The notes under the pieces are model-generated. The model had not been told where the DNA came from and made no database searches. It saw only the letters and a list, made by a program, of their open reading frames with translations. The position numbers were made by a program, and so were the translations under genes. Shown piece after piece: positions 1 to 48,013 of a stretch of 64,000 bases of DNA (position 1 is the first letter of the stretch; each line of letters starts with the position of its first letter). The stretch comes from Parcubacteria group bacterium (GTDB taxonomy: Bacteria; Patescibacteriota; Minisyncoccia; Phycocordibacterales; UBA2100): positions 3,559-67,558 of the forward strand of contig CALRGX010000006.1 in the NCBI GenBank assembly GCA_943358385.1. The letters run 5' to 3'.

Positions 1-756
1 CTTACTGCACTCATTCCCCACGGTGCCAAACTCTTCCAAACCATACCGATTGAAAACTTTGCACTGGAGTTGTTCTTCCACGTAGGCCCTTACTGTTGGT
101 GAGAGATTTTCAGATACTGACACTATGTACTTCAGGGGGAATTTCCTAGGATTCTTCTGCATATAACTCGCCAATTCAAACAGCAAAGACGGATGTGTTT
201 CAAGTATATCGGGTTGAAAATCAATCATCTGCTGGACGGCAGCCTCCGTGTCGTTCAAGAAATCGTCAATCGCTATCACCAGATGATTTTTTTGCTGGCG
301 CGGATGAATACGGATATGAACGACACGTGCCCATGAAGAATCCACGCGCCATGGCGTGTCCCAGAATAGAAAACGGTAGTACAACGAGTCGCCATACCAA
401 GGGAGTCGTGTGTGCACGCGACGTAGTGGGGTAAACGGCGTACCACTCGATCCTGAAGTCTTCGCCCAGCGGCCATACAGCGGTCGGCTCTGATCGGTGT
501 ACTCTTCCACCGGGCGCCCGGCAAAAAGACTTTTGTCTATAATGGGAAGTAGGCGCAGGTCTTCAAGTCTAGAAATGCAATTTTGATTAACGCCACGTTC
601 CGCTAACAACTGTCGGTACAGTGCGATGTGCTCAGAAAGATAAGGGATGAGTGTCCGCAATCGCGACCATTGATAGCGTTCTATCGCGCGGCGATTACGC
701 AGGTGAACACTGTGAAATCGCAGAAAGCCAACGAGATGCCGAATACGCGAAAGCAT
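1..756 (-). CDS. PaaK/F390-synthetase-family adenylate-forming enzyme, paralog 1 of 3. Its 3' end is cut by the window start and it is absent from the ORF track.
   Basis: Manual minus-strand translation (codons in register with position 1) reads MLSRIRHLVGFLRFHSVHLR...WAKTSGSTGTPF...SVSENLSPTVRAYVEEQLQCKVFNRYGLEEFGTVGNECSK with no stop down to position 1. It is collinear and about 50% identical to the ORF at 787..2064. The ATG (cat at 754..756) lies 30 nt after that gene's stop. Confidence 0.8.
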   Translation of the reverse strand, partial: MLSRIRHLVGFLRFHSVHLRNRRAIERYQWSRLRTLIPYLSEHIALYRQLLAERGVNQNCISRLEDLRLLPIIDKSLFAGRPVEEYTDQSRPLYGRWAKTSGSSGTPFTPLRRVHTRLPWYGDSLYYRFLFWDTPWRVDSSWARVVHIRIHPRQQKNHLVIAIDDFLNDTEAAVQQMIDFQPDILETHPSLLFELASYMQKNPRKFPLKYIVSVSENLSPTVRAYVEEQLQCKVFNRYGLEEFGTVGNECSK

Positions 757-786
757 ACAGTAAAACAGTATAACAAGACGCCAATT

Positions 787-2064
787 CTACAGCGCTGACA
801 CTGATTCATCCTTGATAATCTGCGATTTACCTTGCGGGACTCGAGGAATTGAAGTAACGCACTGGACAGAAACGGCGATGTTCTCGCCAATACGCGCCTG
901 GACACGTTTTACAATATCGGGCCCGTCGCTTGTATGATATGCAGGGCCGGGCAACACTCGTACGCATATGTTCGTTTCAGTGAGCTTTACGACTTGATAC
1001 GAGATAATCTTATCCATAAATGAGTCCAGGGCAGCATCAAACTCAAAGTGATGGTATCGCTTGCCACCAAGAGTGAGAAAAGCGCCATATCGACCTTCAA
1101 TCCAAATGCGCGGGGCGTAGAGTCCACAGGCGCATTGCGTCCATGATATCTTTCCACAGTCACCCGTGTCATAGCGCACAAAAGGCATTTCGTCGTTGTA
1201 CAGGTCAGTTACGATCACACGGCCAAACACGCCGTCTGAACAGGGAGTGCCTTTGTCGTCAAGAATTTCTACCACGAAACTTTCGCAGTTCACATGGAAG
1301 CCGTTATGCTGCGCACATTCCACTCCCACGGTGCCAAACTCCTCCAATCCGTAGCGGTTGTAGATGGGGCAATGGAGGGCCTCTTGTACGACTGCTCGAG
1401 TGGCCGGTGACAAATTTTCAGAAACAGAAACGACGTACCGGGGCGAAAGCACCAACCCGTGCTTGTGCACATAGGTGGCCAACTCGAAAAGAATCGAAGC
1501 GTGGCTTTCAATAATGTGTGGCCCAAAATCAATGATGCACTGGACAGCGCGCGCGGTGTCATTGAGAAAGTCGGTAACAGGGACAACTAGGTGATTGAGC
1601 TTGTTATTGGGCAGCACTCGAATGTGTGCAATGCGCATCCCCTGTGCGCGCACAACCCACGGCTTGTCCCAAAAAAGAAAGCGATAGTGTAGTGAGTCAC
1701 CATACCACGGAAGGCGGACGTGTCTGCGCCTCAGGGGGTTGAAAGGTGCTCCACTTGATCCAGAGGTTTGCGCCCAGCGGCCACGTAAGGACCGACTTCG
1801 ATTTGTATACTCTCTGACTGGCTTGTTCAAGAAAATCGCCTTCGAGGTGACGGGCAATTTTTTTAGATCAGCGAGCGTTCTAATTTCTGCAGGTCGTATG
1901 TCTGCTTTTTTTAAAAGCTCCGCATACAGTGGTATGTGTGAAGCAATCATCGGAATGAGTCGCCGCAATCTTCCTGTCTGCCACTTCTTAATAGCCGTGA
2001 CTCCACGCAAATGCAACACGTGGAACTTGAAAAAAAGAATCTGGCGTCTCAACTTATTAAACAT
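787..2064 (-). CDS. PaaK/F390-synthetase-family adenylate-forming enzyme, paralog 2 (phenylacetate-CoA ligase / CapK-like).
   Basis: It carries the TSGSSGAPF adenylation motif and an RYDTGD motif typical of the PaaK/F390 synthetase family. The start is trimmed to M47 of the track ORF (cat at 2062..2064), because the longer ORF would overlap the upstream paralog by 134 nt and the homologous N-terminus begins there. Confidence 0.85.
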   Translation of the reverse strand: MFNKLRRQILFFKFHVLHLRGVTAIKKWQTGRLRRLIPMIASHIPLYAELLKKADIRPAEIRTLADLKKLPVTSKAIFLNKPVREYTNRSRSLRGRWAQTSGSSGAPFNPLRRRHVRLPWYGDSLHYRFLFWDKPWVVRAQGMRIAHIRVLPNNKLNHLVVPVTDFLNDTARAVQCIIDFGPHIIESHASILFELATYVHKHGLVLSPRYVVSVSENLSPATRAVVQEALHCPIYNRYGLEEFGTVGVECAQHNGFHVNCESFVVEILDDKGTPCSDGVFGRVIVTDLYNDEMPFVRYDTGDCGKISWTQCACGLYAPRIWIEGRYGAFLTLGGKRYHHFEFDAALDSFMDKIISYQVVKLTETNICVRVLPGPAYHTSDGPDIVKRVQARIGENIAVSVQCVTSIPRVPQGKSQIIKDESVSAL

Positions 2065-2068
2065 GCAA

Positions 2069-3415
2069 CTAGAAGGCTTTAATGTAGTAGAGGGCTTTGC
2101 CGCTTTTTGCAGGCTCAATACGGTCAACCGTTTCCCATTGCAGACGTGCATTCGGATGCAAGGATCGCCGGATGCGATTTTGCAAAGCCTCGCGTCTGTC
2201 ATTAAAGGAAGGTCCAGGAATGATACGGAGAGTGAAATCCAGTGGAGCCGTCTGCACTATTTGATACTGATGTACTGCATCCCAATATGCGTCAAACAAC
2301 GGCGAGATGTCGAGCAGTGAAAGTGTATGACCATCGCCCAGATCAATGACATCTGACTGCCGGCCTGAGAAGGTTATGGTTCGTAGGGTTCGTCCGCACG
2401 AGCATGCGTCGACGTCTATACTTCCTCGGTCGCCGATATCGTAGCGAATGAAGGGCATGACGGTGTTATCAAAGGTGGTAACGACAATCCGACCTTCTTG
2501 GCCATCGGGCAAACGGCGCCCCTGCGCGTCGACTATCTCTAGGTAAGCCCATTCCTCGTTAACGTGCATTCGTTTCTTTTCACACTCAAAACCGAGCCAT
2601 CCTAATTCTCGCGTCGCGTACGTGGTATAAAACGGAGCTTGAAAAACGTCTTCAATCATCTGCCTATCACGCGCCCCAATCCCTTCACCAGTGGCCACCA
2701 GGGCAAAAACACTAGGCACGGAAACCCCTTTGCGCACTTGCTTGGCAAGTTCAACAATCCACGAGGTATAGCCATACAGGATGACGGGGTGTGTGCGCAC
2801 GCGAAGTGTGGCTAGAAGTTCGGCGAGTCGATACTGTATGTCTGCTGACGCAGCAAGATAAAACATGACATGCCGATAGAATATGAACCCAATACGATGT
2901 CGTGCACGCATTGAAATAACATCATGCCGGAGGCCATGCCCCACGGCGTAAAATGTTCGTTCACAAAACGCAAAGCAGCGCAGCTCAGAGCGCCATCCGA
3001 AGTAGTAGCCAAATGGGCGTCCTGTTGACCCTGAGGTGAAGTCCTGATGACTGCGCTTGAGCTCGTCGACGCTCGTGAATTCAGAATCTTCTCTTCCTGC
3101 GTAAGTACTTTTGGACGAAATGGGCAATAGCTGCAATTGGTCGACCGGGTCACCCTTCTCACGCTCATAGGTTTGCAATTGTTTTTGCCACAGTGGCAAT
3201 AGTTTAGCCTCTTGCAAAAGCGTATCTAAACGGTCGTTGGCGAGTCGGTTCAAGCGAGTTCGCGGCCAATACTGACTTAGCAATAAGGAGCGAACATCAA
3301 AAAAGAGCGGGATACGCCGAAGTGGGGTTGTGAAAATAAGCGGATGCGTCCAGAGCGCATCGCTGCGTAGTCCTTTTTTTTTGAGTACCTGTTCAGTAAG
3401 GTCCATAGAGCGCAT
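2069..3415 (-). CDS. PaaK/F390-synthetase-family adenylate-forming enzyme, paralog 3.
   Basis: It carries TSGSTGRPF and RYDIGDRG motifs and shares the overall layout of paralog 2. Its stop lies 4 nt before the start of paralog 2. Confidence 0.85.
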   Translation of the reverse strand: MRSMDLTEQVLKKKGLRSDALWTHPLIFTTPLRRIPLFFDVRSLLLSQYWPRTRLNRLANDRLDTLLQEAKLLPLWQKQLQTYEREKGDPVDQLQLLPISSKSTYAGREDSEFTSVDELKRSHQDFTSGSTGRPFGYYFGWRSELRCFAFCERTFYAVGHGLRHDVISMRARHRIGFIFYRHVMFYLAASADIQYRLAELLATLRVRTHPVILYGYTSWIVELAKQVRKGVSVPSVFALVATGEGIGARDRQMIEDVFQAPFYTTYATRELGWLGFECEKKRMHVNEEWAYLEIVDAQGRRLPDGQEGRIVVTTFDNTVMPFIRYDIGDRGSIDVDACSCGRTLRTITFSGRQSDVIDLGDGHTLSLLDISPLFDAYWDAVHQYQIVQTAPLDFTLRIIPGPSFNDRREALQNRIRRSLHPNARLQWETVDRIEPAKSGKALYYIKAF

Positions 3416-3427
3416 CTCAGTGCATTC

Positions 3428-4057
3428 TCACTGAATTTCAGACTTTTCCCTGCGCGACTGCCACCATTCCCAGCCCATAGGGAGAAAGGACGCAATGATG
3501 ATTACCCCAACAATGGGGAGAAGGTATTTCTCTACATCGGGTATCAGTGAACCGAGAAAATACCCTGCCAAAGTTACTCCGGTCGCCCATGCGAGAGCAC
3601 CAATGATGTTGTATCGGGTAAAGGTACCGTAGGGCATGTGTGCAGCCCCCGCCACAATCGGTGTAAAGGTACGCACTGCAGGAATAAAGCGAGCGAGAAT
3701 AATCGCCATAGCGCCTTTTCTATCAAAAAAAGCACGCGCGTCCTCAACACGTCGGTGGCTAAAAAGAAAGGAATCAGGACGCGTGAAAATGTAAGGACCG
3801 GCTTTTCTCCCCGACCAGTACCCCACCGCATCACCTAAGATTGCACAGACGGTAAGCAGTGGGACCAGTATCCAGATGTTTAATAGGCCCTGTGAGGCAA
3901 TAAAGCCCGCAGTAAAAAGTAAACTATCGCCTGGTAGAAAAAACCCAAAGAAAAGTCCAGATTCAGCAAAAACAATTGCCGCAAGGCCTGCGTAACCTGC
4001 AGATTCAACCAGGGTGGGCAAATCGGGGACGAACATACTAAAACTCGAGGGATTCAA
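3428..4057 (-). CDS. DedA-family (VTT/SNARE-associated domain) inner-membrane protein.
   Basis: It shows the multi-TM DedA signature (FLPGDSLLFTAGF ... ARFIPAVRTFTPIVAG). It is co-oriented with and 10 nt upstream of the PaaK-like triplet. Confidence 0.85.
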   Translation of the reverse strand: MNPSSFSMFVPDLPTLVESAGYAGLAAIVFAESGLFFGFFLPGDSLLFTAGFIASQGLLNIWILVPLLTVCAILGDAVGYWSGRKAGPYIFTRPDSFLFSHRRVEDARAFFDRKGAMAIILARFIPAVRTFTPIVAGAAHMPYGTFTRYNIIGALAWATGVTLAGYFLGSLIPDVEKYLLPIVGVIIIASFLPMGWEWWQSRREKSEIQ

Positions 4058-4250
4058 TGTTGCTCAGTTGCTCGTAGCTCGAAAGAAACGAAGGGATGGC
4101 GAACATAAGGCCAAGAATTGGCAAGACCAATGCAACGACAGTGGCGATGACCATCCCCAGAAAGTATTTGCGAGTTTTCTCTACTGAAATGTAAATGGCG
4201 TCTACTTTTTCTTCTAGATGCGCAAGTTTTTTCCACGTTTCGGTGTCCAT
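4038..4250 (-). CDS. Small hypothetical membrane protein (70 aa, one TM).
   Basis: The ORF has a hydrophobic core (VIATVVALVLPILGLMFAIPSF). It overlaps the DedA start by 20 nt and would be the first gene of the minus-strand operon. A TATAGT -10-like hexamer sits just upstream. Confidence 0.4.
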   Translation of the reverse strand: MDTETWKKLAHLEEKVDAIYISVEKTRKYFLGMVIATVVALVLPILGLMFAIPSFLSSYEQLSNIESLEF

Positions 4251-4422
4251 ATGTAGGCACTATAGCACTCAATTGTTCATCACCCGTGTGGAGCAATATG
4301 AGCATAAGGGGGACTTGACGTATCATGTGTGCGTGCTATGGTGCTGTCGGTCAAGACAGAGTCTTGGCACTTGGGCACTGCCCAAGTACTGAGGATAGCA
4401 ACAGAAAGTTGGAGAACGCACC

Positions 4423-4811: not shown

Positions 4812-5130
4812 ACTTATTACGCACGATCTTTTCGTAGCGCTGCTGTGCATGGACAAGCTCAAGCAGCGCTTTAGTACGCGCGTCCCAACATTTTGTGTAA
4901 TGACCATTGCGGAAGCCATCTGGGTTGTTTACTTTTTCCCATGCCTTATGCCGTTTAATAAATTCTTCTTGCAGCAGTGCAACTTTTTTGCTTGCCATGT
5001 CTGAGCTCCATTTTTCTGCCGCCAGTATACATGGTCTGCTCTTTTGTTGCTTTTCCCAGGATGGAAAGTCTATCCTGCTATTCACGAGCTGCGGAGACGT
5101 CTTATGTAAGGACATCAGCCTCACTGCCAT
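4810..5130 (-). CDS. Hypothetical small protein (the start may be the internal M at 4995, giving 61 aa).
   Basis: The ORF overlaps the GIY-YIG gene stop by 10 nt in the same orientation. I recognised no family. Confidence 0.4.
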   Translation of the reverse strand: MAVRLMSLHKTSPQLVNSRIDFPSWEKQQKSRPCILAAEKWSSDMASKKVALLQEEFIKRHKAWEKVNNPDGFRNGHYTKCWDARTKALLELVHAQQRYEKIVRNK

Positions 5131-5375
5131 TCACCATTTATTAACTTCTGTTTTTTCTCCACTGTCCACCCTTTGAGTTGAATTTCCCGCTTCCTTGCTT
5201 CTGATTTGTTCTGGAATGGATTCGATACATACACAAGAATGAATGGACCCTGCTGTCTCGCCATACTCGACCCGAGGCCCGCATTGTGCTTGCGGAGCCG
5301 TTTTGGCGGATCATTAGTGATACCAACGTAATGTCTTCCTGTTCCTGTGGCAGCAATGTATACAAACCAACTCAT
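5121..5375 (-). CDS. GIY-YIG (URI) domain small nuclease-family protein (COG2827-like).
   Basis: The motif WFVYIAATGTGRHYVGITNDPPKRLRKHN matches the GIY-YIG signature (GIY, YVG, R, N) of stand-alone 80-100 aa URI-domain proteins. Confidence 0.75.
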   Translation of the reverse strand: MSWFVYIAATGTGRHYVGITNDPPKRLRKHNAGLGSSMARQQGPFILVYVSNPFQNKSEARKREIQLKGWTVEKKQKLINGEWQ

Positions 5376-6090: not shown

Positions 6091-8265
6091 TTAGTCCCGA
6101 TATGACGTTATTGTTTCTGCTTGGTCAAAATCAATGCAGTAGACTTTCGGTGGCTTGTCATAATTTTCCGTCCCGTCGCTATTTTTTTCAAACACCAAAC
6201 AAAAGTTATCCCAGTGCATATGTCCATGTTTTATTCCTAGTTCACCGAGCCCCTGCCAAATCTTTCTGTACTGCGTGTTTACGTGGTCAAACCAGCGTGG
6301 GCTTTTTTCTGCCCATGCTCTGAACGGAATACCTACCACCCCAGACGATACATACACCTTTGACGGATCATGCGAATCTGGTCGAACAGACAAAATTGGT
6401 TCAATTGGTACATATGAAAAACCCAATTTTTTCCAGGTCTGGTGAGCCTCAAAGGCTTTACGCCACTGTAAATACGAATCCGCTTTAATATGTCTTACGA
6501 TTTCTTTCTCTTTGAACTTACCACCTAACAGGTCTAGCTCACTGCCTGTTTTGTCGAACCTTGTTCGTCTGCCGACCTCAGTTGTCGCGTACAAAGTATT
6601 TTCAACTGCCTCAATGGGCGCAGTTTTCTCTATGAGCGCTTGCGCCTCAGGAGATAGGTCGCGAATAAGTGGGAATGAGCCATTTCTGCCAGCTTCGTTA
6701 AGATCTCCTGTGACAATCCTTCGCATTCTAGGTTCTGGGTCTTGAATTGCGGCTAACACGTATTTTTCTCTCAAGGACGGCGGGAGTTGAATTAGATTTT
6801 CCAAAGCGTAGAGCTTATCAGCCGGTGTGCTATTGAAATTACCCTCTATATATTCATCCAGTTTCTTAAACAACTGACTTGAATACTTCTCTGGCAGGGA
6901 CTCTATCAATTGTCGAAGCCGAGGGTGGTCTAAATCTTTATCAGGCGACAATTTCGCTGCAATCGTTCGTGATACGTCTTCGTACCCCATCTCAGCTAAA
7001 TCGGACGGTAGCGTTCTCAGTAACATTACTAACTCAGGCGTTTCTTTGCGCTTTAGAATTTCAGACCAAAGTAGTTGTTGAGCGTATAACTTATCCTCTG
7101 ACTCTGGCATTTGAGATATCACTTTCGCCAAGTCCGTTCCAGTTTCAAACAATCCATTCCCTGAAAGCCCTTTCTTTATTTGCTCAAAACGCGCTTGTGG
7201 CGGTAAATGAAAAATGAGTTTTGCCGCCGCACGTTGTTTTTCATAGTTTTTATTCCAAGCGTCATTGACCCACTGTTCCAAGCGTTCTGTCGGGATACCT
7301 GCTGTCTTATCTGGTGGAAGTTTTGAAATAGCCTCCGCTGCACTATCTCGTACCCACGACTCCGCGTCCTCAAATGCGAGAATAAGGATTGGCAATTGTG
7401 CGTCAACTGGCAGCTCCTCTATTTGTTTGATTGCATCAACTTTCTTCGTCGAAGCGTGCTCACCTTTGTAATTCTTGAAAATGTACTCGATAGGTTTTAC
7501 AAGTTGCGAACCTCTCATTCCTTGCATAACTTCCCCAACGTCAAACAGATCCTTAAAATCTTTTGACTTCGTTTTCTCCGATATCCATTCGTCAACGCGC
7601 GCATAGTATTCACCACGCTGCTTTTCCTCAAGAAAATCAATGAACCTAACCGCCGTCGACGTCAAATCGCCACTGCCGAGTTCAGCGTCAATCAAATTTT
7701 TCATACCACTTTGTAGACGAGGAAGAAGTGCGGACGGGAGTTTTTCAAGCAAATTTAAAACTTTTTCACGTACGTCCCATGTCATGTCTGAAAGTACAGT
7801 TTCAAGATAAGCGGGCTGTAATTGTGTTGGCAGTAGACCCACCAGCTGCACAGCCGAAGCCCTGACTTTCGAGTCGGTTGAATTTATATTCTCTGCTATT
7901 TCCTGTCCAAGTTTCTCGAATGCAGCGTCCTGAGCACTCTCGGATAAAGTCTTTGCAGCAACACGCGCGGAGCGTCTAACTTCGGGGTCTTTATCCTTGA
8001 GAGCAGCGACTAGTGCCGAAGTCTGTTCGGCGGCCGGCATTTGCGGAATCATATCAGCGGCGCGTTTGCGCGTTTCCGAACTTGCACTACTTAAATCATA
8101 TTGGACTGCTTTGTTGATTTGAGTCTGAACAATCGCGTTTGACGTTTGATATCTACGAAGCCAACGCTTTGCCACTACTTCAGGAATACCTTCTGGCACA
8201 TACATTTCGAGCGGAATTTCCACTCCGCTCGGTTGATTCAGTTTGGGACTCTCGCGCATCTTCAT
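6091..8265 (-). CDS. HEAT-repeat protein with a C-terminal atypical protein-kinase-like (RIO/Kdo-kinase-like) domain.
   Basis: The 724-aa ORF has N-terminal PBS-lyase/HEAT-like repeats (DKDPEVRRSARVAAKTL; DAESWVRDSAAEAISKL; MTWDVREKVLNLLEKL). The last ~230 aa show a kinase-like order of motifs: a beta3-like IVRHIK, an HGHMHWDNF stretch aligning to the HGDLxxxN catalytic loop with Asp replaced by His, and VYCIDFDQA resembling the IDFxQ/DFG segment. Its GC content is lower than its neighbours. Confidence 0.8.
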   Translation of the reverse strand: MKMRESPKLNQPSGVEIPLEMYVPEGIPEVVAKRWLRRYQTSNAIVQTQINKAVQYDLSSASSETRKRAADMIPQMPAAEQTSALVAALKDKDPEVRRSARVAAKTLSESAQDAAFEKLGQEIAENINSTDSKVRASAVQLVGLLPTQLQPAYLETVLSDMTWDVREKVLNLLEKLPSALLPRLQSGMKNLIDAELGSGDLTSTAVRFIDFLEEKQRGEYYARVDEWISEKTKSKDFKDLFDVGEVMQGMRGSQLVKPIEYIFKNYKGEHASTKKVDAIKQIEELPVDAQLPILILAFEDAESWVRDSAAEAISKLPPDKTAGIPTERLEQWVNDAWNKNYEKQRAAAKLIFHLPPQARFEQIKKGLSGNGLFETGTDLAKVISQMPESEDKLYAQQLLWSEILKRKETPELVMLLRTLPSDLAEMGYEDVSRTIAAKLSPDKDLDHPRLRQLIESLPEKYSSQLFKKLDEYIEGNFNSTPADKLYALENLIQLPPSLREKYVLAAIQDPEPRMRRIVTGDLNEAGRNGSFPLIRDLSPEAQALIEKTAPIEAVENTLYATTEVGRRTRFDKTGSELDLLGGKFKEKEIVRHIKADSYLQWRKAFEAHQTWKKLGFSYVPIEPILSVRPDSHDPSKVYVSSGVVGIPFRAWAEKSPRWFDHVNTQYRKIWQGLGELGIKHGHMHWDNFCLVFEKNSDGTENYDKPPKVYCIDFDQAETITSYRD

Positions 8266-18592: not shown

Positions 18593-19783
18593 CTAGACTT
18601 TCAGCGATCCGAAGACCGCGTCTTGCGCACCGTGAACGATGAGCGATTCGGACGTCCGGCCGTTCCACATGCCACCAATGAGCTTGAAATTGCCCGTCGG
18701 CGTACTGCGAACAGCGAGTACACGCCATATCACCGTGCCATAGAGGGGATGCGAGCGCGGCTTGTAGAACGGTTGCACCACGTGGGTGACATGATTCTCC
18801 AATCCGGCCAGTACCTTCTCTACCCTCGTGCGGGTGTGGCTATGCTGGCGGTTCTCTGGTGCGTAGATGCAGACATCCTCCGCACCCCAGCCATCCAGCG
18901 GCTTGATGACGAATCCATGTGGGAAGACTTCGACAAGATCATCGAAACTCTCGAAGTTCCACAGATGGCGACCACCCGAAACGGGAAAGTCGATATCTTT
19001 CATACCCCACGGATCTGTTGCCAGACGCGTCCTGATTGAGTCTGGCGCCTGAGCTCCTTCGCATGAAACGTAGATTCGCTCTGCGTGTGCCGGCACGTCG
19101 TTCCAGTTCTCATAGAACGGCACGCCGACTTCTGAGAACACTGAGTACGCTTCTTTCCATTGAGCATATTTTGGAGGCAGCACTGCCGCATCCATCACCT
19201 GCACCAATGGTTCCCGTAGCACGGCGTTCAGCCGCATGGCAAGCGATATGCCGGGACTGGTCTCCACTTCGTAAATGGGAAGCGAACCAGCGCGACCAGC
19301 CTTCTGCATCGGCGCCATATCAAGGCGAACGATACGCGAAGTGGTCTTGTGTGCCACGTGCTCGTTCAGAACCTCTTCCAAGCACGCAACCACATCAAGC
19401 GGAATCGTGTCGACGTCCGCAGATACGAGCATCGAATGTTCGCCGATGGTGGTGCGCACACCTACTGACGGTGGTTTGAACTCCGTTGGTATAGGATCTG
19501 CAATCGCCGGCTCCATCAAAAGCAGATCTGCCAGTGTCGGCAGGATGCCGCGCACGGTCGGGATGCCCTGATGAACCACAAACCGGCGCTCTCGGCCAAG
19601 TTTGTCCTTTCGTTCCTCGGCACGCCAAGTGAATGCGGGGAATTTCTGCTTGATAGCTTCGTACTGCCGTTCACGTTTTGGCCATCGTTCGCTATCTGGA
19701 ACCGGCAAACCCAGTTTCTCGAGCGCCTCGTTGTTGTTGAGGAAGCTCTTCGCCCAGGCGCGGTGATTCGCTCCTGGAGTCAT
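18593..19783 (-). CDS. Hypothetical ATP-grasp-like domain protein. The start is uncertain and the longer ORF runs to 20047.
   Basis: The C-terminal segment FPHGFVIKPLDGWGAEDVCIY resembles the ATP-grasp central motif (V-I-K-P-x-x-G-x-G). The start is trimmed to MTPGANH. Confidence 0.5.
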   Translation of the reverse strand: MTPGANHRAWAKSFLNNNEALEKLGLPVPDSERWPKRERQYEAIKQKFPAFTWRAEERKDKLGRERRFVVHQGIPTVRGILPTLADLLLMEPAIADPIPTEFKPPSVGVRTTIGEHSMLVSADVDTIPLDVVACLEEVLNEHVAHKTTSRIVRLDMAPMQKAGRAGSLPIYEVETSPGISLAMRLNAVLREPLVQVMDAAVLPPKYAQWKEAYSVFSEVGVPFYENWNDVPAHAERIYVSCEGAQAPDSIRTRLATDPWGMKDIDFPVSGGRHLWNFESFDDLVEVFPHGFVIKPLDGWGAEDVCIYAPENRQHSHTRTRVEKVLAGLENHVTHVVQPFYKPRSHPLYGTVIWRVLAVRSTPTGNFKLIGGMWNGRTSESLIVHGAQDAVFGSLKV

Positions 19784-20079
19784 GCCGGCACGTAGCCGAA
19801 CTTGTGTGAGCTCATGCGGCGGCTCTGCTGCTCTCTGCTGCCTTCTCATTTTCTTCCTCTCTTCTCTGCCAAAGATCATTTCCATGCAGTGCCAAAGCAC
19901 CGGGCTGCGCATTCGATTTTCAAACAAGCAGCCCGACACTCGACTAAAAAGACCCCTCTTTTCGGAGGGGTCTTTCTCGGTGATTTGCGTGAGTATGCAA
20001 GTTACAAGAAAGTCCCCTCGGTAAAGAGAAGGCAATACATGGTCCAAATCGCTGTATGACGAACTTGCATATATCGAAG

Positions 20080-45072: not shown

Positions 45073-45948
45073 CTACGCGCCCTCGCCATTAAGCTGCTTT
45101 GCCATCACCTCGATGGGTAGTGTGTAGATGCTGCATTGCTTACCGAAATGCGCCTCCAACTGAATACGTCGCTCTCGCGCTATGTTGCGCACTTTTTCAA
45201 AACCATCGTATTTATGTCGTGTTTCCATGGTTGGCCACGAACTCTGATACACCAAACGTTTCAACAGGTAGCTATTTGCTTTATGTTGAAATGTTTCAGG
45301 ATATTCTAGTGCGCGCGCCACAATCGGATGCTTCATATACGCATCGATCAGTTCCGGCGTTCTAAAAAAGAAGTACGGCTCATGTGATACCTTTGTACGT
45401 CTGCACCACTCCAACGGTGCGGCGTAGCCCGCCTGAAAGTGTAAAACTGCCGTCGGTATGCCTGAAACCATTTCAGTCTCGTACATCTGCTCACCCCCTC
45501 CCAAAATGGCAAGCCCACCCATACTCTCCACTGTTTTGAGTAAATACACTTGGAGATAGCGAAACGGGTAGTTTGCGACATACCCTTCTTTCACATAGGT
45601 ATCAATGTCAGAGCGTATAAACTTTTCCATGTCGATGGGCACAATTTTTTGCTCCACCCGGTGCGCTTTACACCACTTTTTTGCGTATGCAATATCGTAT
45701 GCGTTGGTACCTGCAGTATGCTGGAAGGTGAGGGCACGAAAATGAATTCCCTGGCGATACAACGATTCGCACACCACTTCACTATCAATGCCCCCACTAA
45801 AACACACCCAAATAGGCTTATTGAGACGACTGGCTTCACTCGCCACATCTCGTGCTGCGGCATCCACCTCGTCGTAGAAATTCTTTGAGGGGCGCGTGCG
45901 TGGTAAAAAAGCAATGGAAAATTGCTGATCACCTTCGGGTGTACCCAT
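45073..45948 (-). CDS. PP-loop superfamily ATP pyrophosphatase (PAPS-reductase / QueC-like N-type ATPase).
   Basis: It has the SGGxDS P-loop (VCFSGGIDSEVV) near the N-terminus. The start is at MGTPEG. Confidence 0.6.
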   Translation of the reverse strand: MGTPEGDQQFSIAFLPRTRPSKNFYDEVDAAARDVASEASRLNKPIWVCFSGGIDSEVVCESLYRQGIHFRALTFQHTAGTNAYDIAYAKKWCKAHRVEQKIVPIDMEKFIRSDIDTYVKEGYVANYPFRYLQVYLLKTVESMGGLAILGGGEQMYETEMVSGIPTAVLHFQAGYAAPLEWCRRTKVSHEPYFFFRTPELIDAYMKHPIVARALEYPETFQHKANSYLLKRLVYQSSWPTMETRHKYDGFEKVRNIARERRIQLEAHFGKQCSIYTLPIEVMAKQLNGEGA

Positions 45949-46050
45949 CTGATACAAAAGTGCGCTCACAGAGATATAGTAGCAAGTGCGCGCGTGGTTC
46001 CACAATGAAAAAGCAGCCTGGCGGCTGCTTTTTCAAAGTCGTATGTGCGG

Positions 46051-47817
46051 TTAGCGCGGCTTTACACCAGGCTGCTTGCGCAGGCGTACGTTGTCGGGAG
46101 TGATTTCCAAATATTCGTCTTCGGCCATGATTTCAAGCCCGCGCTCGATCGTGAGCGTAAATGGCGGTGTGAGTGTAATAGCTTCGTCTGAGCCAGATGC
46201 GCGCACGTTGGTGAGGTTTTTTCCTTTAGTAGGGTTTACATACATCTCATCACCTTTTGCGGTGTTGCCCAACACCATACCTTCGTAGACTTCAACGGCT
46301 GGGCCGATGTAGAGAAGGCCACGTTCCTGCAGATTCCAGAGGGCAAATCCAGAAGACTTTCCTTTTTCCATAGATACCATCGATCCCACTACACGTTTTT
46401 GTATTTCCCCGGCGTATGGGCGGAATTCAATAAAGCGAGAGGCAAAAATTCCCTCACCTTTTGTATCAAGAATGAATTGGCTGCGGAAACCAAGAAGCCC
46501 CCGTGTTGGTCCCTCAAACGTGAGTCGAACATTTGGCCCGTCTACCTGCATATTCGTCATGATGCATTTGCGCAGGCCGAGGCGCTCAATAACTGCTCCT
46601 TGGTACTCCGACGGCACATCAATCACCACTTCTTCGTATGGCTCGTGCTTGGTGCCTTCTACTTCATGGAAAATTACCTGGGGTTGTGATACCTGCAGCT
46701 CGAATCCTTCGCGGCGCATATTTTCCAAAAGAATAGCAACGTGCAATTCACCACGGCCCGATACTTTGTAGGCATCGTTGTTAGAGAAATCGACCTTCAA
46801 GCCCACGTTGATCTCAAGCTCCTTTTCAAGACGCTCGCGAATTTGACGGGTGGTGACAAATTTACCTTCGCGGCCGGCAAATGGTGAGTTGTTTACGAGG
46901 AAGGTGAGAGAGATGGTAGGCTCGTCTACGTGAATTGCAGGGAGCGCCTCAGTGGTCTCGCTGTCGGTAATTGTTTCCCCAATGGTGATATCTGGGATGC
47001 CCGCAATCAAGGCAATGTCGCCTGCGTCAACTTTTTCGTTTTCGACGCGCTGGAGGCCGTTAAAGCCAAAAAGCTTCACCAACTTTCCTGTTCGCGTGAC
47101 ACCTTCAGGATTACGGACAAAAACCGTGCTTCCGACCTTCAATTCTCCTTCGTACACACGGGCTATGGCAAGGCGGCCGAGGTAGTTGTCGTACCCGAGG
47201 TTAAATGGCTGTGCGCGCAGTGGCTTTGCTACCAATTCCGGAGTAGAGGATGAATGAATGTGGGTGAGAATGGTGTCGAGAAGTGGTGTGAGATCTTTGC
47301 GTTCGTCATCAAGCTTTTTCATCGCAACTCCTTCACGGCCAATAGCGTAAATTACAGGAAAATCTGCCTGTTCGTTCGATGCACCAAGCTCGAGGAACAA
47401 CTCCAACACCTGCTCTTCACAACGATCAGGGTTCGCCGCCGGCTTGTCTATTTTGTTGATGACGACAATAGGGCGCAAGCCGAGTTCGAGAGACTTTTTG
47501 AGTACAAAACGTGTCTGCGGCATAGGGCCTTCCTGTGCATCAACAATCAAAAGGACTGAGTCGATTGAGCGCAGTACGCGTTCAACTTCAGAGCCAAAAT
47601 CGGCGTGGCCAGGAGTGTCTACGATGTTAATCTTCGTGTCTTTATACGAAATAGAGGCATTTTTAGCGTAAATGGTGATGTTGCGCTCGCGCTCAAGGGC
47701 GTTGCTGTCCATGGAGGTACCATCCTCTACGACGCCTGCCTGTTTCAAAATGGCATCGGTAAGCGTGGTTTTGCCGTGGTCCACGTGCGCAATAATGGCG
47801 ATATTTCTGATTTCCAT
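46051..47817 (-). CDS. typA: Translational GTPase TypA/BipA.
   Basis: It has [19 protein letters not shown] (G1), DTPGHADF (G3) and NKID (G4), with EF-G-like domains II to V. The start is at cat 47815..47817. Confidence 0.95.
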
Positions 47818-48013
47818 AAAATAAAAAGGCGGCATTGCCGACGCGAAAAACAATAGCATACGTTTCTATTTTTGTATAGGCCAGGGCACGCTTCTGGCCT
47901 AAAAAGAGCGAATTTGTGGCGAGGTTATCCCCAAATACTTGACATTTACGCATTATCTGAGATATTCCATAAGGAAACGCTCGAAGAAAATTCAACAAAA
48001 CAGGAGTCGAACC

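Follow-up and report, generated by a model that had tools for sequence, protein, structure and literature searches.

We analysed a 64,000-nucleotide stretch (hereafter the window) of a Parcubacteria group bacterium (assembly GCA_943358385.1, contig CALRGX010000006.1, positions 3,559 to 67,558), at the left end of which three adjacent genes encode PaaK-like adenylate-forming ligases, here called LigC, LigB and LigA. Bacteria of the Candidate Phyla Radiation (CPR, or Patescibacteria) have very small genomes in which few biosynthetic pathways have been recognised, and azole-peptide clusters of the YcaO type are among those few. We find that LigC, a ligase of the LigA/LigB type (AB type) and, optionally, a protein named P331 make up a conserved cassette, which is homologous and syntenic with ligase modules in CPR azole-peptide clusters.

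Organisation of the ligase operon

The operon lies on the reverse strand and reads towards the left edge of the window. Its first gene, TM70 (4250..4038), encodes a 70-residue protein with one transmembrane (TM) helix. After 1 nt follows the gene for a 202-residue membrane protein of the DedA/VTT family (4036..3428), which lies directly upstream of LigC (3406 or 3415..2069, for 445 or 448 residues) with a gap of 12–21 nt. LigB (2064..787, 425 residues) comes 4 nt after LigC, and LigA (756..1) another 30 nt on, truncated by the window edge to its N-terminal 252 of 427 residues. Packed so tightly, the ligases, DedA and TM70 could be co-transcribed.

The complete LigA gene (427 residues) occupies L001:11309-12592, in one of the contigs and loci used for comparison, which carry L numbers. 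In reverse complement, L001:1-12064 agrees with the window at 99.99% identity, so the cut in LigA is a windowing effect only. Just outside the window, 33 nt after LigA, lies the co-oriented gene of P331 (331 residues), the only further gene of the operon. TM70, DedA, LigC, LigB, LigA and P331 probably form one six-gene co-transcribed unit, of which the window holds the first five. Beyond P331 are a convergent large serine recombinase and then genes of housekeeping type (DUF1993, MFS, YqeY).

An exact-protein look-up found LigB with identical neighbours in contigs of six different samples or assemblies, including the metagenome-assembled genome (MAG) GCA_943354405.1. LigA and the genes beyond it are found in every assembly contig long enough to reach them, and the shared stretch is 99.98–99.99% identical across the compared assemblies. 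An assembly artefact or a set of recent identical duplicates was rejected, as the ligases are only 55% (LigA and LigB, full length) and 28% (LigC and LigA) identical and their arrangement is the same in the six assemblies.

These results bear on an initial annotation made from the window sequence alone. Its picture of tightly packed genes that follow those for DedA and a small membrane protein, of an operon running past the window, and of paralogs that are not identical copies all held. It had suggested extending the contig leftwards for glycosyltransferases, acyl carrier proteins and flippases. The extended contig has none of these, and the extension completed LigA and added P331 alone to the operon. 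The paa (phenylacetate) genes are missing from that contig as well, so the phenylacetate catabolic cluster that would have contradicted the initial annotation was not found.

The ligases are divergent PaaK-like enzymes

LigA, LigB and LigC all carry the motifs TSGS[ST]G-PF, Y-x-x-x-E-x-G, RYD-x-GD and GR and a C-terminal GK, and these adenylation motifs are invariant across 31 homologs of the AB type. Judged from sequence, all three ligases retain the residues needed for acyl-AMP formation from a carboxylic acid and ATP. A profile of the AB type matched the PaaK-like structure PDB 4R1L over residues 16–413 (E=7e-48), and further PDB matches were 9S3L, the PaaK structure 2Y27 and AjiA1. The initial assignment to diverged PaaK/F390-synthetase-like adenylating enzymes is thereby confirmed.

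Matches to specific families are far less close. Pfam AMP-binding (PF00501) gave 13.9–18.9 bits, under its cutoff of 29.9, and no match for LigB, indicating that the ligases depart from the general model. The NCBIfam matches (DVU_1553, FlxY, PaaK, BagE/FevW and F390 synthetase) all fell far under the curated cutoffs, with scores of 37–127 bits for family cutoffs of 300–800. Phenylacetate-CoA ligase PaaK (TIGR02155 and NF041878; 37–86 bits for cutoffs of 646 and 700) and coenzyme F390 synthetase (TIGR03335; 35–61 bits for a cutoff of 458.7) were rejected as identities. A role in phenylacetate catabolism was rejected on scores far under the equivalog cutoffs together with the missing paa genes. 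For the capsule-related domain CapK_C (PF27533), the matches of window proteins are merely ‘weak’ or ‘faint’ in precomputed annotation, and hmmscan returned none at E≤0.1; CapK_C matches are on record for C-type proteins.

The AB-type family is small, with about 49 clusters more than 32% identical in a collection of 5.8 billion proteins. The nearest homologs were all encoded in MAGs of CPR/Patescibacteria, namely Paceibacterota, Kaiserbacteria and Saccharibacteria. LigA, LigB and LigC are divergent members of the PaaK-like branch (ANL superfamily, COG1541) and belong to no named equivalog, and the genes should not be annotated as phenylacetate-CoA ligase, F390 synthetase or capsule protein CapK.

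Two local features set the subtypes apart. The invariant Gly-Arg of the hinge region is followed by Y-[SG]-A in the AB type, by Q-S-D in LigC and by S-D-D in 4R1L. The AB-type ligases also have a 9-residue insertion after the P-loop.

An old ligase pair and a younger duplication

In a neighbour-joining tree, the AB and C types form separate clades, usually with one gene of each per genome. Both types are CPR-specific, and the tree places them apart from those proteins that carry the PaaK C-terminal domain. The tree joins LigB and its ortholog from L087 as sister to LigA and its ortholog from L088. LigC-type and LigA/LigB-type enzymes are two anciently diverged subfamilies, with LigA and LigB the products of a younger duplication. 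The tandem triplication proposed in the initial annotation holds in that three genes are adjacent, but they are not equal copies: there are two subfamilies and one duplication. Its estimate of about 50% identity between the first two paralogs caught their divergence and fell short of the measured 55%. The phylogeny of the paralogs, likewise proposed there, supports diverged genes and separates the AB/C pair from the proteins with the PaaK C-terminal domain.

Two sister lineages have other gene contents at the same locus. L087 reads TM, DedA, LigC, LigB ortholog and P331, with a single AB gene. L088 reads TM70 and DedA and then directly the LigA ortholog and the start of P331. Compared with the window, flanking genes are 88–95% and DedA 88–90% identical, whereas the ligases are only 67–77% identical (LigC 68% and LigB 67% in L087, LigA 77% in L088) and number one, two or three. 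The tree and these gene contents suggest an old C/AB pair and a second AB copy with differential loss. The AB type was duplicated before the window genome, L087 and L088 split; copies were then lost differentially, and the window genome keeps three ligases. Retention of orthologs in the sister lineages at 66–77% identity implies purifying selection. Over a wider range, C-type orthologs of LigC are 41–68% identical in L087, L090, L091, L094 and L097.

P331 is predicted to be a six-bladed β-propeller

The L001 copy of P331 has no Pfam match, and a sequence search of the PDB gave nothing significant. Its family is tiny (20 clusters), and at least six members adjoin AB-type ligases. The invariant positions of the family include several His, Arg and Asp residues, among them His129, His199 and His242. 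We built an AlphaFold model from the family alignment, using the member P0121, which is 92% identical to the L001 copy. The model predicts an all-β, six-bladed propeller with a predicted local distance difference test (pLDDT) score of 92.9.

The best PDB match of the model in Foldseek is Cpz4, a sulfotransferase of the arylsulfate sulfotransferase (ASST) type (E=7.7e-11, TM 0.60/0.44), and NHL propellers score nearly as well. Pfam Arylsulfotrans (PF05935) has sub-threshold matches in 9 of the 20 family members, the best at E=5.6e-5, and none for the member 92% identical to P331 of the window genome. Arylsulfotran_2 (PF14269) matches 2 of the 20. We regard an ASST-like function of P331 as a reasonable lead rather than a demonstrated membership.

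The ligase pair accompanies YcaO genes in distant CPR loci

We tabulated the gene context of the ligases in 14 loci outside the window clade, counting YcaO when it lay within 10 kb of the ligases. Both ligase subtypes are present as an adjacent pair in 12 loci. YcaO was counted in 10, and most of these ten also have a nitroreductase-type dehydrogenase. L094 carries YcaO, nitroreductase, LigC, LigAB, P331 and ATP sulfurylase on a single strand with gaps of 1–66 nt. The series from LigC through LigAB and P331 to ATP sulfurylase recurs in L095/96 and L097/98; YcaO lies beside the cassette in L095/96, and the contigs of L097/98 start just upstream of LigC. The ATP sulfurylase that follows P331 in L094 to L098 was located at L094:6382-7521, L095:7060-7935 and L097:4105-5244.

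Other loci pair the ligases with a different propeller. L007 reads YcaO, nitroreductase, U427 (an unknown protein), PQQ propeller and LigAB on a single strand. In L090 and L091 the ligase pair stands back-to-back with a series of PQQ propeller, small TM protein, unknown protein, nitroreductase and YcaO. The propeller beside the ligases matches Pfam Beta-prop_ACSF4 in L007, L009, L090 and L091. Sulfate-related genes are found here too: L090:3410-5871, next to the ligase pair, encodes a Sat/CysC fusion with an APS (adenosine phosphosulfate)-kinase part and a sulfotransferase of the PAPS (phosphoadenosine phosphosulfate) type, and L091:1-2437, also next to the pair, encodes two sulfatases. Four Saccharibacteria-type loci (L010, L012, L014 and L023) have genes for DegT aminotransferase, SDR, methyltransferase or glycosyl/glycerophosphotransferase in the vicinity of the ligases, and the LigC-type gene directly adjoins DegT in L010, L014 and L023.

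Small genes in these loci make up a candidate precursor family, whose products combine a TM anchor at the N terminus with an [VI]AHA[DE] motif and a tail rich in Gly, Ser, Cys and Asp (for example ...SCGGDCGGDCGGDCGGK). Candidates beside YcaO lie at L007:4359-4784 and L009:4435-4839 on the reverse strand and at L090:17185-17412 and L091:17181-17444 on the forward strand. Another, at L091:4818-5219 (forward strand), is upstream of the ligase pair and not beside YcaO; it shares the strand of LigC-LigAB, with three genes between. A related precursor-like gene with an Ala-rich tail is found beside YcaO at L094:3-347 (reverse strand).

Sharrar et al. (2020; PMC7298704) have already described linear azole-containing peptide (LAP) clusters with YcaO and nitroreductase in CPR bacteria, counting 110 clusters across 93 genomes. 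The components named in the available text of that article are YcaO, nitroreductase, peptidase and precursor, and ligases are not among them. Our literature search found no paper joining YcaO with PaaK or F390 synthetase, none on PaaK-like enzymes with ribosomally synthesized and post-translationally modified peptides (RiPPs) or amide bonds, and none joining CapK with F390 synthetase. In the literature we found no description of this ligase pair and its propeller occurring together with YcaO clusters of CPR bacteria and with sulfate activation.

DedA is a lineage-specific neighbour

The DedA protein scores 80 bits against Pfam VTT_dom (PF09335; cutoff 33.9) and 162 bits against NCBIfam DedA PRK10847, under the cutoff of 236. 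Against the undecaprenyl-phosphate transporter UptA (NF052604/5) it reaches 59 and 50 bits, under cutoffs of 250 and 300. DedA is spaced 12–44 nt from the ligases in the window genome, L087 and L088. None of the 14 loci outside the window clade has DedA near the ligases, and the linkage was seen solely in these three genomes. We infer that DedA is a positional housekeeping neighbour on a shared transcript, not a mechanistic partner. The initial annotation had taken DedA to point to a lipid-linked or envelope substrate. That argument is weakened by the lineage-specific linkage and by the housekeeping-like conservation of DedA.

Surroundings of the cassette in the window genome

tblastn with the YcaO proteins of L007 and L094 as queries found no YcaO in the window or in L001-L004. 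Queries with the dehydrogenase, PQQ propeller, DegT, SDR, sulfurylase, kinase, TPR and unknown cluster proteins also found nothing there, apart from two matches described below. Neither a dehydrogenase homolog nor an open reading frame (ORF) with the precursor-like motif [VIL]A[HNQ]A[DE] occurs in the window, L001, L087 or L088. Across 72 kb, made up of the 64-kb window and 8 kb beyond, there is no YcaO, dehydrogenase, precursor or sulfurylase gene. The same 72 kb are free of glycosyltransferase, flippase, polymerase, carrier protein and sugar-nucleotide genes. As the LAP genes are absent from this interval, the window cassette is linked to azole peptides by homology only.

One of the two tblastn matches is a PP-loop (SGGIDS) protein of 310 residues at 45073..46005 on the reverse strand, 41 kb from the cassette. 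It is 40% identical to a 295-residue protein with a weak Asn_synthase match, whose gene adjoins the ligase pair of L091 and L007, and it lies next to a translational GTPase-like gene at 46051-47859. The other, at 18602-18961, is part of a 484-residue ORF (18593-20047, reverse strand) and is 36% identical over 127 residues to a 306-residue unknown protein, whose gene in L090 has the sulfurylase on one side and the ligase pair on the other.

Upstream of the operon, a 172-nt intergenic stretch (4251..4422) is the presumed promoter region and separates TM70 from the divergent gene P112 (4423..4761, forward strand), which encodes a 112-residue secreted Ala-rich protein. A promoter consensus scan gave matches at chance level. 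Terminator-like matches numbered 16, compared with 6.0 ± 2.5 in shuffles; most fall within coding sequence and none at an operon boundary. P112 occupies the same place in L087 and L088 (71–79% identical), and TM70 is directly upstream of DedA in both (74–91%). Neither protein matches a known family in Pfam or NCBIfam. P112 was considered as an analogue of LAP precursors and rejected, since it does not resemble the Gly/Ser/Cys-rich precursor family found in the relatives. An anti-phage defence island was likewise rejected, as PADLOC gave no match for any operon protein.

Further into the window, 6091-8265 (reverse strand) encodes a 724-residue protein with N-terminal HEAT repeats and a weak PADLOC HEAT-ARM match. 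Its C-terminal region contains HGHMHWDN...IDFD, which may be reminiscent of a kinase-like catalytic loop. This gene and the next two small genes (one for 160 residues and one for an 84-residue GIY-YIG protein, 5121-5375) are missing from L088.

On the other side of the cassette, the serine recombinase gene (L001:13424-14782, reverse strand; L003/L004:13424-15238) overlaps the final ~200 nt of P331. L001/L002 match L003/L004 exactly as far as L001:14753, within the recombinase gene, and differ from them thereafter. L003/L004 encode a full recombinase of 604 residues with a Resolvase domain, and L001/L002 have an ORF of 406–452 residues that lacks the N-terminal part, followed by host genes. In L087, where no recombinase is present, host sequence in antisense matches residues ~496–600 of the recombinase ORF. 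The divergence between the two contig pairs and the antisense match suggest that a mobile element inserted directly after the cassette.

Interpretation of the cassette

We tentatively interpret the window cassette as a YcaO-less, expanded copy of a previously undescribed tailoring module of ligases and propeller, uncoupled in this lineage from the azole-peptide genes, and we give this reading somewhat less than an even chance. Its functional core would be LigC, a LigA/LigB-type ligase and P331, the last acting as a cytoplasmic six-bladed propeller distantly like aryl-sulfotransferases. Each ligase would adenylate a small acid and hand the acyl group to an acceptor with a thiol or amine group. 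Our best guess for this acid is an aryl or phenolic one, because of the PaaK, FlxY and BagE affinities of the ligases and their aryl-sulfotransferase-like partner. The C and AB subtypes may act sequentially or as a complex, and the spacing of 1–4 nt between ligase genes suggests coupled translation. The extra AB copy could widen or change the acid used. The product tailored by the cassette would be secreted or exposed on the surface, made here without azole machinery, at least locally.

Several points weigh against this interpretation. The 72 kb around the cassette hold none of the azole-peptide genes, and the cassette may do something different in the window genome. The chemistry ascribed to the ligases derives from their family membership, and the tree that defines the pair is a neighbour-joining tree with no support values. 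The count of 10 in 14 loci with YcaO overstates independence, since some loci are phylogenetically related. P331 homologs in L092 and L093 are not beside ligases, and the ASST similarity of P331 is sub-threshold, with generic NHL propellers almost equal to Cpz4 in Foldseek. In addition, there could be a functional reason for the tight co-transcription of DedA and the ligases in three genomes.

The last point leads to the CapK-like role suggested in the initial annotation, in which acyl or aminoacyl activation would decorate a lipid-linked envelope glycan or polymer. Flipping or recycling of the polyprenyl-phosphate carrier would then fall to DedA. The close DedA spacing in the three genomes fits such a role, as do the sub-threshold UptA matches of DedA, the weak CapK_C matches of the ligases and the sugar-modifying genes near the ligases in L010, L012, L014 and L023. 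Because of the DedA linkage and the sugar genes in those distant loci, we still count an envelope or glycan function among the candidates. Yet the interval around the cassette has none of the glycan genes sought, DedA is absent from all 14 distant ligase loci, and DedA is conserved at the level of its housekeeping flanks (88–90%) while ligase number and sequence change. The early proposal is weakly supported overall, and we consider it unlikely. More doubtful still are ordinary aryl-acid CoA ligases of the PaaK or indoleacetate-CoA type, whose task would be scavenging or detoxifying aromatic acids of host or environmental origin, each duplicate handling another acid. The best solved relatives (4R1L, 2Y27 and 9S3L) and the NCBIfam matches to PaaK, FlxY and BagE/FevW speak for them. 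The scores far under the family cutoffs do not, nor does the lack of paa or downstream CoA-thioester genes nearby or the place of the CPR-specific AB/C pair in the tree, apart from the proteins with the PaaK C-terminal domain. The YcaO, dehydrogenase and sulfurylase genes that recur as neighbours argue for biosynthesis rather than catabolism.

The least probable alternative, to which we give very little credence, is that the cassette is a functionless, decaying remnant of a lost azole-peptide cluster that rides on the DedA transcript. The local lack of YcaO, dehydrogenase and precursor genes would follow from it, and gene content does differ between close relatives, with a serine recombinase adjoining the cassette. 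Decay is at odds with three intact ligase ORFs, an intact P331 and the retention of every catalytic motif. The arrangement is also kept across the nearly identical compared assemblies, and the sister-lineage orthologs, by their identities, bear the mark of purifying selection.

If the preferred reading of an uncoupled tailoring module is carried further, the ligase pair and propeller might be an undescribed tailoring class for CPR azole peptides, which in the window genome escaped its YcaO cluster, gained a third ligase and acquired a new target under co-expression with DedA. We consider this extension rather unlikely. The tailoring of azole peptides could consist of phenolic-acid acylation, or of activating the Asp or C-terminal carboxylates abundant in Gly/Ser/Cys/Asp-rich cores, and the ASST-like propeller might add sulfuryl transfer as a further step. 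If true, this would make the pair and propeller a portable ‘acyl-adenylate + propeller’ cassette that brings new chemistry to RiPPs.

The presence of the ligase pair beside many YcaO clusters, often with a propeller and sulfate activation, suggests that the products of CPR bacteria undergo heavier tailoring than a three-enzyme model would lead one to expect. A natural experiment is at hand in the window genome, with the cassette minus the azole machinery, an extra ligase and a variable copy number among near-identical strains. Such variation is the pattern expected of a surface or competition trait.

Comparison with known systems

The window ligases share with PaaK-type aryl-CoA ligases (4R1L from Bacteroides thetaiotaomicron; PaaK1/2, 2Y27 and 2Y4O) the length of ~430 residues, the domain order, the P-loop, Y-G-x-x-E, YxxGD/GR and the terminal Lys. 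The AB type and 4R1L also have in common an E-C...H / C-x-C-G cysteine-histidine cluster. In contrast to these enzymes, the window ligases have no paa operon and form a fixed two-subtype pair, are just ~25–30% identical to the nearest named PaaK-family proteins outside their clade, and in the AB type carry GRY[SG]A in place of GR[ST]DD. CapK and ‘F390 synthetase-related’ capsule proteins (COG1541; Pfam CapK_C) belong to the same superfamily branch, and some distant homologs of the window ligases adjoin DegT, SDR or glycosyltransferase genes. Unlike CapK loci, the window cassette has weak or faint CapK_C matches and an extended contig without capsule or glycan genes.

Cpz4, which takes part in the two-step sulfation of caprazamycin biosynthesis (PDB 9KF4), is the top structural match of the P331 model and has the β-propeller fold predicted for P331. 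A likeness to ASST may also be seen in several invariant His and Arg residues of the P331 family and in the ATP sulfurylase that follows P331 in L094 to L098. P331 differs from Cpz4 in length (331 residues compared with ~460) and in its sub-threshold sequence similarity, and the window cassette has no sulfate-activation gene nearby. ACSF4/AASDH-type proteins, in which an adenylation domain is fused to a PQQ-like β-propeller, show the same pairing of an adenylate-forming enzyme with a propeller. Here, however, ligase and propeller are separate proteins, and P331 belongs to a different six-bladed family. We know of no function for the ACSF4 propeller.

The remaining comparison is with the CPR clusters of LAPs, or thiazole/oxazole-modified microcins (TOMMs), as far as they are covered by the available text of PMC7298704. 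The window has none of the genes that define such clusters. In its relatives, on the other hand, the same ligase pair lies inside or beside YcaO and the nitroreductase-type dehydrogenase, and the adjoining small genes end in Gly/Ser/Cys-rich tails.

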